A DNA stretch of 64,000 bases, from positions 265 to 64,264 of the forward strand of contig JBDOMM010000038.1 of assembly GCA_039832695.1 (NCBI GenBank). Direction: 5' to 3'. Numbering within the stretch: the first letter of the stretch is position 1; each line of letters starts with the position of its first letter. Below, piece after piece: positions 5,374 to 45,788 of this stretch. Source of the stretch: Bacillus sp. (in: firmicutes) (lineage in GTDB: Bacteria; Bacillota; Bacilli; Bacillales; Cytobacillaceae). The notes beneath the pieces were generated by a model. The model ran no database searches, had not been told where the DNA came from, and saw only the letters and a program-made list of their open reading frames with translations. The position numbers were made by a program, and so were the translations under genes.

Positions 5374-5520
5374 TTTCTGCGAAATGAGGGAATGATTGTA
5401 GAATTTATGTCATTTTTATGAAACCGTTTTAATTTTTTTGAAAATTTAACATTTATCACACAAAAATTGTTTGAAAGTTTCATATAATGAAGATAGAACA
5501 TGAAAGGGAGGTCCAAACAT

Positions 5521-5868
5521 ATGAAAACCCCAAATTATCATGACTTTTACCAAAAGGCATTAATCCCAATTGGTTATAACGATTTAATCGCCTTAAAGGA
5601 ATCAGATGCTTACATCCCTAACTCTCCTTACACACATTGGCTTATTGCCGTAGAAGGGGTCCAACTCCCACAGCCTACCATCTACTATAATTGGAAAGTT
5701 AGCATATACCCCGCTGATTGTGATGGCGACTTCAATTGGAAAAAACCTTACTACTGTTCTGTAAATATGGAATTAATGGATCAAGCCGATAAATTAGCTT
5801 CTTCATTAGTCTCTTCCGGCAAAAAAGATGAGCTTTCTTCCTCAACCCTTCTAGAAAAAATAAGTTAA
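5521..5868 (+). CDS. Hypothetical protein (115 aa)
   Basis: ORF with GGAGG RBS before ATG 5521 and TATAAT at 5483-5488; no family recognised. Confidence 0.7.
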   Translation: MKTPNYHDFYQKALIPIGYNDLIALKESDAYIPNSPYTHWLIAVEGVQLPQPTIYYNWKVSIYPADCDGDFNWKKPYYCSVNMELMDQADKLASSLVSSGKKDELSSSTLLEKIS

Positions 5869-5994
5869 GCCCCTAACATCCTATCTTCTGCTTCACCTTC
5901 TTTTTACCCTCACTTGTGAAAAAACCTACATATAGTGGTATTAAAGCTTTTTATTATTCTAATCTTCATCCCATCTCTGGCATGGAACCCTTTT

Positions 5995-6735
5995 CGGTAA
6001 AGTAGACTGCGTTTCTACGTTACCGATTTCCCTTTTTCACAAACACTTGGGTCACGGAGACCCTTTTTACGTGACCGTTTCCTCTTTTTCTCATTCACTT
6101 GGGTCACGTAGACCGCCTCTATGTTACCGTTTCCTCTTTTTATCAATCACTTGGGTCACGTAGACCGCCTCTATGTTACCCATTCCTCTTTTTCTCAATC
6201 ACTTGGGTCACGTAGACCCTTTCTACGTGACCGTTTCCTCTTTTTCTCAATCACTTGGGACACGTAGACCCTTTCTACGTTACCGTTTCCTCTTTTTCTC
6301 AATCACTTGGGTCATGTAGACCCTTTCTACGTTACCGTTTCCTCTTTTTCTCAATCACTTGGGTCACTTAGACCGCCTCTACGTTACCGTTTCCTCTTTT
6401 TCTCAATCACTTGGGTCACGTAGACCGTCTCTATGTTACCCATTCCCCTTTTTCTCAATCACTTGGGTCACGTAGACCGTCTCTATGTTACCCATTCCCC
6501 TTTTTCTCAATCACTTGGGTCACGTAGACCGCCTCTACGTTACCGTTTCCTCTTTTTCTCATTCACTTGGGTCACGTAGACCGCCTCTACGTTACCGTTT
6601 CCTCTTTTTCTCATTCACTTGGGTCACGTAGACCGCCTCTACGTTACCGTTTCCTCTTTTTCTCATTCACTTGGGTCACGTAGACCGCCTCTACGTTTCC
6701 CTTTCCTCTTTTTCACAATCACTTGGGTCAAGTAG
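5995..6735. repeat. 52-bp tandem repeat array, about 14 units, each with an 11-bp hairpin
   Basis: CACTTGGG recurs at 6044, 6096, 6148 ... 6720 (exact 52-bp period); consensus CACTTGGGTCACGTAGACCGCCTCTACGTTACCGTTTCCTCTTTTTCTCAAT. Confidence 0.97.
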
Positions 6736-6800
6736 TGCTGATTACTTCTTAGTATATATACATTCCCCAAACCATTTTTTTTTTTCAAATCCCAATAAAT

Positions 6801-6844
6801 AAAAAAGTGCTGTTTACGATTCCTCGTAAACAGCACTTTTTTTC
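6801..6844. terminator. Bidirectional intrinsic terminator after fixX
   Basis: AAAAGTGCTGTTTACGA-TTCC-TCGTAAACAGCACTTTT with flanking A/T tracts. Confidence 0.85.
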
Positions 6845-6846
6845 AT

Positions 6847-7131
6847 CTAAGCCAATCTAAATACGATTCCATGGCCACCCTTTGGATATTCCCACTTAAT
6901 GTTTTGATACGGACAACCAATTCGGCAGCTTCCACATTCATGACAGCCTTCGTAGCCAACCTGCATCCTTGTTCCTTCCCACTTATACACTTCTGCTGGG
7001 CAAAATACTGTACAAAGTTTATCAGGACATTGGGTCATGCACACATCATGATCGAGCACGGTCAAATGGGACTTCGTGTCACACTTAAAACGGAGAAGAT
7101 ACTGTTTTTCTTCAATATTCTTCGTTGACAT
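6847..7131 (-). CDS. fixX: Ferredoxin-like protein FixX
   Basis: CMTQCPDKLCTVFCP and CHECGSCRIGCP cysteine clusters; TAATG overlap with the fixC stop. Confidence 0.88.
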   Translation of the reverse strand: MSTKNIEEKQYLLRFKCDTKSHLTVLDHDVCMTQCPDKLCTVFCPAEVYKWEGTRMQVGYEGCHECGSCRIGCPYQNIKWEYPKGGHGIVFRLA

Positions 7132-8426
7132 TATTTCACCGCCTTCCAAGCACGATAAATATCTTGCAATACTCGAATCGTTCCTCTTTCCGAAGTGACG
7201 CTCTTCATAATCTGCTTTTGCTTTTCCCGTTTTGGCGTTCCATCTACAGTAAAGAATTTGCTCATGGCTTTGTTCATCATTGGTACATATTCATTGAAGT
7301 ATTGTGGATACTTCTCAAACGTATGTGCAGCATCCTTATATTTCTCTAAATCTTTAATAATGAAACTATCATATAATTTCTCACGGTAAAGATTTAAACT
7401 AGACTCTGAGAAATCTCCCCGATGTTTCGCCTCTATTACAGTTTCAGCGGCTAACATACCAGAATGCATCGCCATGTTTGAACCTTCACGGTGAATGGCA
7501 TTAACTAACTGAGCAGCATCACCAACAACGACTACTCCATTTCCAGCTACCTTAGGAACGGAGCGGTACCCGCCTTCTGGGATGAGATGGGCAAGATATT
7601 CTGCCGATTCTCCACCAGCAATTAATGGTTTTACCATAGGGTGTGTTTTCAAGTAATCTAGCAGCTCATACGGCTTTAATTTCGCTTTAATCATACTAGA
7701 AAGTGTGGTACCTACCCCAATGTTAATGCTTTCTTTATTTGTGTAAATAAAGGCTGTACCAAGATTTCCTTTTGTTGAATCCCCAAAGATTTCAATCGTA
7801 CAACCTTGACCATCTTCAAGGTTAAATCTGTCATTAATCTTTTCTTTTGGTAAATTTACCACTTCCATAACGGTTAGTGCTACTTCATCTGGTCGGAATT
7901 CTTTATGGAAGCCCAACTGTTTGGATAAGAGTGAGTTTACTCCATCAGCAAGCACGACAACATCCGCGTATACTTCTCCATCTGGGCGGTCCGTGCGCAC
8001 ACCTACCACCTTGCCATTTTCAACAATACACTCAGTAACAACAGTTTCGTTGATAAGAAGTGCTCCTGCCTGGACGGCTTTTTGAGCAAACCATTGGTCA
8101 AACTGCGCCCGAAGAACAGTAAAGTTATTATACGGCTCTACACCCCATTCAAGACCTTTGTAACCGAATGAAACGACCGATTCTTTATCCATCATCCAGA
8201 AACGCTGTTCAATCACAGGCCTTTCTAGAGGTGCTTCCTTCCAAAACTCAGGAATTAACTCTTCCATTTGTTTTCGGTATAGCACACCACCCATTACGTT
8301 TTTAGCACCTGGATATTCTCCACGTTCAATCAGTAACACGTTTAAGCCATTCCTTGCACATGTAAGAGCACAGGCTGTACCCGCAGGTCCCGCCCCAACA
8401 ATGATCACATCAAATTTTTCAGGCAT
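7131..8426 (-). CDS. fixC: FAD-dependent ETF:quinone oxidoreductase FixC
   Basis: GAGPAG Rossmann motif, ERGEYPGAKNVMGG, VGDAAQLVN; position in etfB-etfA-fixC-fixX order. Confidence 0.9.
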   Translation of the reverse strand: MPEKFDVIIVGAGPAGTACALTCARNGLNVLLIERGEYPGAKNVMGGVLYRKQMEELIPEFWKEAPLERPVIEQRFWMMDKESVVSFGYKGLEWGVEPYNNFTVLRAQFDQWFAQKAVQAGALLINETVVTECIVENGKVVGVRTDRPDGEVYADVVVLADGVNSLLSKQLGFHKEFRPDEVALTVMEVVNLPKEKINDRFNLEDGQGCTIEIFGDSTKGNLGTAFIYTNKESINIGVGTTLSSMIKAKLKPYELLDYLKTHPMVKPLIAGGESAEYLAHLIPEGGYRSVPKVAGNGVVVVGDAAQLVNAIHREGSNMAMHSGMLAAETVIEAKHRGDFSESSLNLYREKLYDSFIIKDLEKYKDAAHTFEKYPQYFNEYVPMMNKAMSKFFTVDGTPKREKQKQIMKSVTSERGTIRVLQDIYRAWKAVK

Positions 8427-26510: not shown

Positions 26511-27614
26511 TTAATTGTTTTTTCGATTATTATTACCATTCTCTTTATTGTCGTTATCGTGACGATTATTATTTCGTTCATCGTTACTATGATTATTGGA
26601 ATTGTGGGTATTATTGTTATAATTGTTATTATTGTTATTCTGTCTATAATTGTTACTTTGATTTGAGTTATTATGCCCATTAGTCTTCCAATTTGAATCG
26701 CTTTGTTTTCTGTATTCTCCTTGGTTTTGCTTCGAATTTTCCTCTTCCATCTTTTTTAAATATCCTGGAGAATTCGCGTTTCTATCCCATTTTCCCTTTT
26801 CTTCACCTTTATCCCAACCTGACTGTGTATCATTTTGTTTCTTTGATTGTCCAGGTGAGGTTGAGTTAACTGATGGTGTTTGTGCCGGAACAGTAGTTTT
26901 TTCTTTTTCTTTCTCTTTCCCAATATCCATGTTCTGTTGTTTGGATTTTTCTTGAGAAAATTGGTATTTCCCGTTAGAAATACCTTGTTTATGCGCTTCT
27001 TCTAATCCCTTTTTGTTACCGGTTAAGACAATTAGTTCTACCTTTTCCTTATTAACCGAGGCTTCAATCTTATCTAATTTACGCTGTAGTTTTTCTTCTA
27101 CCTTTTCTTCAGGCTGCTCGATACGAACCGTAGAAATAAGGACTTGGGTATTTTCTTTTAAGTAACCACTCTTTTTCATCTCAGCAAAAATAACTTTGGT
27201 TAATTCCGAAACATCTTTGTTCTTCCAATGCTTTAAACGCGAAATAATATCTTTTCCTTCTTTATTGAATCCGCTTAATTTCACAACCTGCATTTTTTTA
27301 TTCACACCCATTTCAACACTTGGGTTAGCATCAATGGACATATATGCATAGGCCTTATCATCTTGGTACATAGGAATAAACGTCCCAATAAAAACCATAA
27401 GTACAGCCATAACGATCCAGACGGTTTTAAGTCTAAATATATTTCTAAATGACCTTTTGGTCATAGATCCATTAATGCTTTCCATCGGAAAAAAATAAAT
27501 TTCTTCTCCAATTGAATAGGGCTGGCTCTGTTTTCTTGCACGCAAAAATTCACCTTCGGGGGTTAAAAGCGTTAGAAAACCATCTTCTATTTCCATAATT
27601 ATTCCTTTTTTCAT
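26511..27614 (-). CDS. rsgI: Anti-sigma-I factor with Asn-rich disordered tail
   Basis: LTPEGEF N-terminal domain, TM helix, YMSIDANPS autoproteolysis motif, downstream of sigI. Confidence 0.9.
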   Translation of the reverse strand: MKKGIIMEIEDGFLTLLTPEGEFLRARKQSQPYSIGEEIYFFPMESINGSMTKRSFRNIFRLKTVWIVMAVLMVFIGTFIPMYQDDKAYAYMSIDANPSVEMGVNKKMQVVKLSGFNKEGKDIISRLKHWKNKDVSELTKVIFAEMKKSGYLKENTQVLISTVRIEQPEEKVEEKLQRKLDKIEASVNKEKVELIVLTGNKKGLEEAHKQGISNGKYQFSQEKSKQQNMDIGKEKEKEKTTVPAQTPSVNSTSPGQSKKQNDTQSGWDKGEEKGKWDRNANSPGYLKKMEEENSKQNQGEYRKQSDSNWKTNGHNNSNQSNNYRQNNNNNNYNNNTHNSNNHSNDERNNNRHDNDNKENGNNNRKNN

Positions 27615-45686: not shown

Positions 45687-45788
45687 GTCCTATATTATTA
45701 ATTTTAAATTTTTGAATTTTGAATTTTTCTAAGATGGATTATATATAGAAAACTTTGAAGTAGTTCATGTGGGAGTTTGAGATTGTGG

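Follow-up and report, generated by a model that had tools for sequence, protein, structure and literature searches.

A 52-bp palindromic tandem array from a Bacillus sp. contig as a probable member of a dispersed, strand-oriented satellite class of the Bacillaceae

Tandem repeats with a constant size of 52 nt and a variable sequence have been described as 'enigmatic' by Subirana & Messeguer (Int J Mol Sci 2021, PMC8161180; Genes 2021, PMC8625621). This class has been found in Firmicutes only, in ~30 % of Bacillus species and in neither B. subtilis nor B. cereus; there are many families per genome, with short conserved signals 'and their reverse' and partial conservation between strains (PMC8161180). 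In B. mesonae NZ_KV440949.1, for example, 95 tandem repeats were reported, 88 % of them of 52 nt, and it was proposed that the repeats carry a (nucleoid-stabilising) protein that polymerises along the DNA or, alternatively, act as small RNAs or sponges (PMC8161180). In the present study, an array of 52-bp units was analysed in a 64,000-nt stretch of a Bacillus sp. contig (JBDOMM010000038.1), referred to here as the window. This array (5992-6735) very probably belongs to the 52-nt constant-period satellite class of the Bacillaceae, within a family defined by the palindrome GGTCACGTAGA-N5-TCTACGTKACC.

Every feature of the published class is shared by the window family: a unit of 52 (51-53) nt, a noncoding sequence, multiple arrays and families, a signal accompanied by its reverse complement, incomplete conservation from strain to strain, and a Bacillaceae host. 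The palindrome family is itself included in the published supplement, as Fam_87_52_6, Fam_154_53_4 and the N. bataviensis arrays. The supplement families carry TCTACGTGACC...GGTCACGTAGA, and the N. mesonae array at 122623-123151 is locus L008 of the present collection, NZ_KV440949.1 being the source of loci L006, L008, and L049. The core ACGTAGAC-N4-TCTAYGT is also found in 1_52_139, the major family of B. coagulans. Since both the 52-nt class and the family have already been published, the window array is regarded as a further member of a described class. A full-text literature search for the motif returned chance matches in primers only.

Unit structure, array ends and the dispersed family

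The window array consists of 13 full 52-bp units (6044-6719), preceded by a degenerate first unit and followed by a truncated last unit. Tandem Repeats Finder placed it at 6014-6735, with a period of 52, 13.9 copies, 92 % matches, 0 % indels, and a score of 1120. In the CACTTG register the full units start at positions from 6044 to 6668, all 12 spacings being 52. Each unit carries CACTTG and a 27-bp palindrome, GGTCACGTAGA-N5-TCTACGTKACC, after which comes a linker of 25 nt whose pyrimidine-rich strand is the plus strand of the window. The palindrome gave nine matches at up to three mismatches, against none expected from shuffles, and no further copy was found in the 64-kb window outside the array. 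The degenerate first unit (5992-6043) is made up of GGTAAAGTAGA, a 7-nt loop, TCTACGTTACC, and a linker; its nhmmer match (5996-6042) scores 29 bits, compared with 55-62 bits for full units. In the truncated last unit (6720-6735) the linker end is followed by the 5′ arm alone (GGTCAAGTAG), a half-palindrome right boundary that is typical of the family.

A preliminary description, made from the letters of the window alone, had reported about 14 units at an exact 52-bp period, the same unit anatomy, and two sets of identical units (6408 = 6460; 6512 = 6564 = 6616), all of which were recovered here. It had also described the array as noncoding, distinct from CRISPR, and composed of hairpin-capable units with recent local duplication, and this agrees with its intergenic position between convergent genes and its near-identical linkers. 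The period is not divisible by three, and the sole open reading frame (ORF) of at least 50 aa that touches the array encodes 57 aa on the minus strand (6663-6836) and enters the last unit.

The proposal of compensatory changes in the stems was borne out in part. The G.U pairs produced by TCTATG are genuine in units 6096, 6148, 6408, and 6460. However, in 11 of the 13 full units C4 faces T24, with which it does not pair on either strand (C.U on the plus, G.A on the minus), and unit 6200 alone has a perfect 11-bp stem. The first unit has an A-T pair at the C4/T24 place, together with an A.G mismatch and its 7-nt loop. Because the full units are mostly mismatched at this place, the A-T swap amounts to the repair of a mismatch rather than the replacement of a C-G pair. 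In units 6044, 6252, and 6356, pairing is lost through changes on one side of the stem only.

Using the pattern GTCACGTAGACNNNNTCTAYGTKAC and one genome per species, 55 loci were identified in ~30 genomes. In all, 57 further arrays were found in Neobacillus, Mesobacillus, and relatives, or 58 with the window array. Nearly all of the 55 loci are from Neobacillus or Mesobacillus, with a few in records labelled Priestia, Paenibacillus, or Oceanobacillus, and there are up to six loci per genome, related genomes having at least six canonical arrays each; the window's own genome, of which 64 kb are visible, shows one array. The palindrome-to-palindrome spacing in the 58 arrays is 52 in 237 of 262 cases, 51 in 14, and 53 in three. 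Units within an array run head-to-tail with a single linker polarity. The linkers and the 5-nt centres vary among arrays and are homogeneous inside each array; on its pyrimidine-rich strand the linker contains T-tracts, and a conserved TTC precedes the next 5′ arm. No copies were found in 72,556 plasmids, 50,697 phages, or a viral contig collection. Plasmid or phage iterons and a parC-like centromere were considered and rejected, as there are no replicon matches and the contexts are chromosomal housekeeping genes.

The array ends fall in a consistent phase. A lone 3′ arm is present one period ahead of the first full palindrome in 21 of 37 arrays, compared with 4 of 36 for a 5′ arm, and one period past the last palindrome there is a lone 5′ arm in 24 of 35 (a 3′ arm in 2 of 35), where the random expectation for a lone arm at an array end is ~1 %. 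Based on these half-palindrome ends, the arrays can be described as N copies of a 47-bp module, TCTACGTGACC-25 nt-GGTCACGTAGA, joined via 5-nt centres; locus L011 has exactly two modules. The array ends seem to be set by an event at the centre of the palindrome, which may be recombination, nicking, or the end points of a founding duplication.

The loci also contain, within the same 8-kb tiles, 52-bp arrays on other palindromes (GGGCAACTAGA...TCTAGTTGCCC, GGGTAAATGAA...TTCATTTACCC, and GGTCGCATAG...CTATGAACC). In L007 (621-904) and L023 (781-1120) arrays of different palindromes abut, and the 52-bp register runs across the switch. In L020 (1-470) canonical units are head-to-head with a variant array (GGTCGCATAG...CTATGAACC), and the palindromic junction, GGGAAAAGGGAACCCTTTTTCCC, suggests a local inversion between the arrays. 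An array with a 54-bp period in L016 (2343-2673), on a different A+T-rich palindrome (TAATCAAACGTTTGATTA) followed by GTTTTTC, may represent a sister class of hairpin satellite. In L025 (6779-6805) there is a single extended perfect palindrome, AAACGGGTCACGTAGA-AGTAG-TCTACGTGACCCGTTT, which has no half units beside it and may be a founder or remnant site. The candidacy of this solo palindrome as the operator of a cognate regulator was rejected, based on its location between the 3′ ends of convergent genes and not in a promoter.

Constraint, turnover, silence and polarity of the arrays

For arrays of at least six units, the pairwise diversity among units of one array was 0.07-0.09 per site for the arms, as against 0.20 for the loop and 0.16 for the linker, and the arms were the less diverse in 20 of 22 arrays (P=1.6e-5). 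Information per position is 1.76-1.86 bits in the arms, 0.66 in the loop, and 0.57 in the linker. Among 235 family hairpins there are 73 G.T pairs, 61 A.C pairs (wobbles on the other strand), and 256 true mismatches; given the similar numbers of G.T and A.C and the dominance of mismatches, there is no strand-specific wobble signal family-wide. A covariation check had been suggested in the preliminary description. In 100 distinct hairpins, 86.6 % of cells pair, and there are 26 double-sided changes compared with 12.6±2.6 in column shuffles (0 of 500 as high), mostly from C-G to A-U at pair 4-24, where 47 % of sequences are unpaired. Covariation is therefore present, but a maintained symmetry of this kind fits a dyad-symmetric DNA site equally with a hairpin. 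Folding exceeds that of shuffles on both strands (z=-7.2 on the plus strand and z=-4.3 on the minus strand), with many inter-unit pairings in competition.

Two further signals were sought and rejected. The polar octamer of SpoIIIE/FtsK type, GAGAAGGG, considered as a hidden component of the purine-rich linkers, has no exact match in the window or in any array consensus. If one mismatch is allowed, 12 of the 37 consensus units have it, a frequency not unusual for purine-rich DNA. Helical phasing of the T-tracts is weak and not dominant, the 10.4-bp harmonic being 21.7 against 15.5±2.4, with 13 of 1000 shuffles as high.

In the window, the array lies between the gene for a 115-aa hypothetical protein (5521-5868, plus strand; a second-Met start, the listed ORF starting at 5500) and a fixX-like ferredoxin gene (6847-7149, minus strand), the last in an etfB-etfA-fixC-fixX operon; both converge on the array. 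The 115-aa protein has no Pfam family and was found only in Neobacillus. Between fixX and the array is a bidirectional intrinsic terminator (6801-6842), with a perfect 19-bp stem and A- and T-tracts, which is also present in array-less relatives. The neighbours in the window include the hypothetical gene, a hemerythrin-domain gene, an MFS transporter, and the etf/fix genes.

Four orthologous loci, from an 88 %-identical metagenome relative, N. soli, N. cucumis, and Bacillus sp. S3, keep the gene order, and in them just 113-227 bp separate the 115-aa gene from the gene that follows, with no palindrome. Homology to these relatives ends at ~5944 and resumes at ~6796-6801, and therefore ~850 bp are specific to the window. 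These comprise the array, a leader (5945-5991) of unique sequence that may consist of decayed units, and a trailer (6736-6800) that reaches from the array to the terminator; the leader and the trailer are both absent from the orthologous loci. That they had been carried along with the array was rejected, as neither resembles anything else in the data compared. From this comparison of loci, the window array may have been inserted after the split from the 88 %-identical relative, although we put this forward tentatively. Orthologous arrays elsewhere differ in length, with 8 units in L001 against 2 in L019 (both complete genomes) and 8, 4, 2, and 2 in the set as a whole. A comparison of copy number between strains, which had been proposed in the preliminary description, thus yields both length differences and four empty sites.

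The ~65 nt 3′ of the 115-aa gene (5880-5944) have 94-97 % identity in three of the four array-less loci and 89 % in the fourth, and this conservation looks to be above that of the 3′ end of the coding region. A 3′-UTR (untranslated region) element, a small RNA, or a binding site are possible roles. The segment faintly resembles the array linker (…CTTTTT…TCACTTG). Copying of the linker from local sequence at 5891-5916 (CTTCTTTTTACCCTCACTTG compared with CCTCTTTTTCTCAATCACTTG) was considered and dropped, since the window linker is homologous to the linkers of L028, L029, L034, L041, and L044; the likeness may be due to chance in T-rich sequence. In N. soli (L057, 4355-6120) a phage-type integrase and an HTH_3 regulator are beside fixX, at the usual fixC place, and an integrated element appears to interrupt the etf/fix operon in that species. 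Other tandem repeats in the window, at 26545-26655 and 45700-45728, have periods of 24 bp (2.2 copies), 9 bp (5.2 copies), and 15 bp (1.9 copies).

In contigs assembled from paddy-soil metatranscriptomes, the 115-aa gene has a depth of 80-315, compared with 0-6 for the window array, in two short pieces from one run. Between 5836 and ~5970 the coverage of the gene, initially 231-277, drops first to 37 and finally to 0. In the isolate RNA runs X35, X36, and X40, the flanking genes alone are covered, at very low depth, with nothing on the array. In a soil metatranscriptome, the L038 array and its unique leader have a depth of 0; the left neighbour has a depth of 60-900 and ends at 6212-6231, and the right neighbour has a depth of 1,400-25,500 and ends at 7159, the ends being marked by adapter. 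No promoter-like site pointing into the window array was found, and Rfam 15 gave no match on it, the only hits (E=0.34-4.5) falling on the terminator, within the gene for the hemerythrin-domain protein, and shortly past the end of the 115-aa gene. Terminator-like hairpins point inward beside 15 of 34 arrays; of the 68 array sides, 19 have an inward hairpin and 4 an outward one, control windows giving ~8 % per strand. Abundant RNA from the arrays is unlikely. The window array is in a dead zone between convergent genes, is bounded by the terminator on the fixX side, and is essentially untranscribed; based on this, it probably acts, if it acts at all, as DNA rather than as RNA.

At L038, the array-adjacent gene (7159-7800) reaches a contig depth of ~25,000 and stops sharply at its own terminator, 50 nt from the array. 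The 115-aa gene (5521-5886) is among the better covered genes of rice-paddy metatranscriptomes. One contig ends at 5886 in Illumina adapter sequence, with no terminator apparent, which suggests a defined RNA end 18 nt past the stop codon of this gene.

The arrays are oriented with respect to replication. Of the 34 loci where GC skew is clear, 30, including the window, have the purine-rich strand of the array as the G-rich, leading-type strand. The gene met on moving downstream along the pyrimidine-rich strand is convergent towards the array in 28 of 35 cases, and two contexts are divergent. For N. mesonae (NZ_KV440949.1), 82 arrays of 52-53 nt were transcribed from the published Table S5. Before 2.62 Mb the plus strand is pyrimidine-rich in 20 of 25 arrays and purine-rich in two, and after 2.62 Mb it is purine-rich in 37 of 57 and pyrimidine-rich in four (Fisher P=4e-10), the switch lying between 2.58 and 2.65 Mb. 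From the GC-skew signs at 0.12 and 4.90 Mb, the switch point appears to be origin-like. In the same genome, 28 of the 82 arrays are clustered at 3.5-4.0 Mb. The TTGGAAACAC/CAATAG family has a T-tract polarity opposite to that of other families on both sides of the switch, and therefore each family seems to have its own fixed polarity.

Interpretation and rival explanations

We interpret the array as a tolerated, selfish-like, replication-polar hairpin satellite that expands and contracts and is recognised by a putative protein, a reading in which our confidence is about even. The scheme for its origin and behaviour, comprising module insertion, 52-bp steps, arm recognition, and a replication-coupled step, is more tentative. 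The building block would be the 47-bp module, the ends of which are 11-bp inverted repeats, and successive modules would be joined via the variable 5-nt centre to give the 27-bp palindromes. An array would be seeded by the insertion of one or more modules and would then grow or shrink in 52-bp steps, through slipped-strand mispairing or unequal exchange, with the linker of each array being homogenised. The arms would be conserved because a putative sequence-specific protein must recognise them, this being a binding protein or a recombinase or nickase that acts at the palindrome centre. The polarity could reflect a replication-coupled step on the lagging-strand template, or selection tied to the direction of the fork or of genes.

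A number of points weigh against this interpretation. At the window insertion, neither a target-site duplication nor shared flanks could be detected. Palindrome conservation across loci is partly a matter of ascertainment, the loci having been found by the palindrome pattern. The array of a ~97 %-identical strain (run X19) is shorter by 364 bp (7 units) and ~105 bp (~2 units), which could be due, at least in part, to short-read assembly collapse. The RNA depths are from assembled metatranscriptome contigs, a poor measure that carries no strand information, and the 52-nt repeats of B. coagulans were reported by Subirana & Messeguer to be transcribed. Some arrays are kept at orthologous sites across species (L001/L009/L019/L048/L050), which is compatible with function, and the constant 52-bp period over unrelated palindromes suits a structural or host function better than selfish spread.

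These last points favour the main rival explanation, which is rather unlikely overall but best explains the invariant period. As a host architectural element, the array would present phased sites 52 bp (~5.0 helical turns) apart to a dimeric or polymerising nucleoid-associated protein, and so organise or anchor the chromosome. It would account for a period of 52 (51-53) held over families with different palindromes, and for dyad-symmetric conserved arms around a variable centre and beside a variable linker. The recurrent linker T-tracts, with some excess at the 10.4-bp harmonic (21.7 against 15.5±2.4), and the shielding of arrays from transcription, with the persistence of some at orthologous sites, point the same way. 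However, the 10.4-bp harmonic tops both neighbouring harmonics in just 11 of 36 units, and individual arrays are dispensable, as close relatives have an empty site. The class is also patchy, being present in ~30 % of Bacillus species and missing from both B. subtilis and B. cereus, the coexisting palindrome subfamilies would require several cognate proteins, and a symmetric site leaves the strict polarity and the half-palindrome ends unexplained.

A bolder proposal, which we consider a long shot, is that arrays are built by an enzyme, a recombinase or nickase with a 52-nt 'ruler' that acts at the palindrome centre on the lagging-strand template and adds or removes whole modules, by a logic like that of CRISPR adaptation but self-templated, or else that they are satellite DNA for a polar chromosome-organising polymer. 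Either would jointly explain the invariant period, the half-palindrome ends, and the ~90 % polarity.

It is improbable that the units are stacked leaky terminators or insulators, in which the hairpin of the pyrimidine-rich strand and its U-rich, C-rich, G-poor tail would stop convergent read-through or transcription directed counter to most genes and to replication. A simple terminator screen accepted three sites on the plus strand of the array, among them 6206-6232 and 6678-6696. Coverage of the 115-aa gene drops at the array edge, where relatives have their terminator, and by the family orientation the terminator-like strand is antisense to most genes. Nevertheless, the strongest T-tract is usually 9-15 nt past the stem, post-stem positions 29-32 being T in ~55-60 % of arrays, and 11 of the 13 window stems have a mismatch. 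Many arrays already have a canonical terminator toward the incoming gene, which would make the array redundant, and neither the fixed 52-bp period nor the presence of 14 copies is explained by termination.

The chances appear equally low for a repetitive extragenic palindrome (REP) or REPIN type of element, in which a Y1 HUH transposase, similar to RAYT and encoded elsewhere in the genome, would cut and mobilise single-stranded hairpins of the lagging-strand template. The arrays do form an extragenic palindrome family with GTAG, their modules have inverted ends, their orientation is tied to replication direction, and several subfamilies coexist as in REP families. Ton-Hoang et al. in 2010 reportedly found that the orientation of single-strand transposition of the IS200/IS605 type also follows replication direction. 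Against this type of element, GTAG is in the stem by the loop and not at the palindrome foot, the units are direct and not alternating, and the boundaries fall in the least conserved part of the unit, which is odd for a sequence-specific nick site. When the 327 ORFs within 4 kb of arrays at the 55 loci were compared all-against-all, with no HMM scan, there was no recurrent neighbour gene; the clusters were of common (ABC) transporters and syntenic orthologues only, with no transposase, recombinase, or Cas-like neighbour. A search for other arrays and linked genes, suggested in the preliminary description, produced the arrays but no linked gene among these ORFs.

A multi-hairpin noncoding RNA, either a small RNA precursor or a protein sponge, was the leading idea of the preliminary description and the second hypothesis of the published authors, and we now consider it highly improbable. 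Both strands fold far above shuffles, covariation is modestly present, transcription is reported in B. coagulans, and low-depth contigs touch the window array in one run. Yet the depth is 0-6 in the window and 0 in L038, beside highly expressed genes, with inward terminators flanking many arrays and neither an inward promoter-like site nor an Rfam match. The arms are conserved as sequence and not merely as pairing, and covariation would be expected of a dyad-symmetric DNA site as much as of a hairpin. The suggested selection for an RNA structure of the plus strand is likewise not supported, given balanced wobbles (73 and 61) with no strand preference, the 256 mismatches that dominate them, and the folding of both strands.

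A purely neutral variable number tandem repeat (VNTR), arising by chance duplication with no constraint, is effectively excluded: the contexts are random, arrays are present or absent among relatives, and copy number varies, but the same palindrome and 52-bp period recur at ≥55 loci in ~30 genomes, variability in the arms is half that in the linkers, array boundaries invariably fall in one phase, and ~90 % of arrays share polarity. Of the readings offered in the preliminary description, it is the selfish minisatellite that matches the tolerated, selfish-like satellite preferred here. The expectation of that description that a random context would indicate a neutral VNTR holds for the context, which is random, but not for the conclusion, as the arms, period, and orientation are clearly constrained.

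Comparison with known systems

The arrays resemble CRISPR in their regular, partly palindromic ~27-bp repeats and intervening segments of fixed length. They differ in that the linkers are near-identical copies (diversity of 0.16 per site) of just 25 nt, in the dozens of arrays per genome, and in the lack of a cas-like neighbour among the window genes and the 327 ORFs near arrays. In practice, the arrays are good VNTR markers, and in Neobacillus genomes they give rise to spurious CRISPR predictions and to breaks in assemblies.

In the mosaic elements of the species of Neisseria, 20-bp dRS3 palindromes alternate with RS segments of 50-150 bp, and dRS3 is a recombination or integration site for which a cognate recombinase and phage are known. 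The arrays here similarly alternate a conserved inverted repeat with a less conserved segment, with the linker length being fixed in this case. The BOX elements of S. pneumoniae and the MIRU of M. tuberculosis are dispersed and intergenic, with a module of ~45-53 bp in variable tandem number; they can form hairpins and are useful VNTR markers. BOX has distinct boxA and boxC ends, and MIRUs sit inside operons with small ORFs. The window family is likewise a dispersed intergenic tandem module that is hairpin-capable and variable in copy number. The 52-bp arrays, however, keep a single period across unrelated palindromes and have half-palindrome ends, and to our knowledge neither BOX nor MIRU has one invariant period over unrelated families, or ends of that kind.

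The REP and BIME sequences of enterobacteria and the REPINs of Pseudomonas are numerous short extragenic palindromes, often in regularly spaced clusters and usually at 3′ gene ends or in convergent gaps. Their copy number varies between strains, there are several families per genome, and they have a replicative unit with inverted ends and RAYT transposases. Like REP (20-40 bp), the present family is an extragenic palindrome, of 27 bp, with 235 strand-oriented copies scored here. REP palindromes are tagged by GTAG (or CGTC) at one end (PMC3733652). In the arrays, by contrast, GTAG is inside the stem, at positions 7-10 by the loop, with its complement at 18-21. The arrays are also strictly head-to-tail at one period rather than alternating, the host is a firmicute, and, unlike the REPIN-RAYT system, there is no RAYT-like gene beside any array in the comparison of neighbouring ORFs from the 55 loci.

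Few abundant satellite-like DNAs are known in bacteria, and the 52-nt repeats are one of them. For two of the arrays, the RNA data presented here argue against abundant transcription, unlike the published claim for B. coagulans. Array orientation follows replication about as strictly as that of known polar chromosome motifs. The palindrome, the ends, the turnover, the silence, and the polarity together argue against the small-RNA idea for this family, and direct attention to DNA-binding or DNA-processing proteins and to the replication fork. Beyond the papers on the 52-nt class, the present comparison adds a conserved 27-bp palindrome with the capacity to form a hairpin, half-palindrome ends, replication polarity, gain and loss at levels from species to strain with an empty orthologous site, and a silent setting in transcription-free gaps flanked by terminators.

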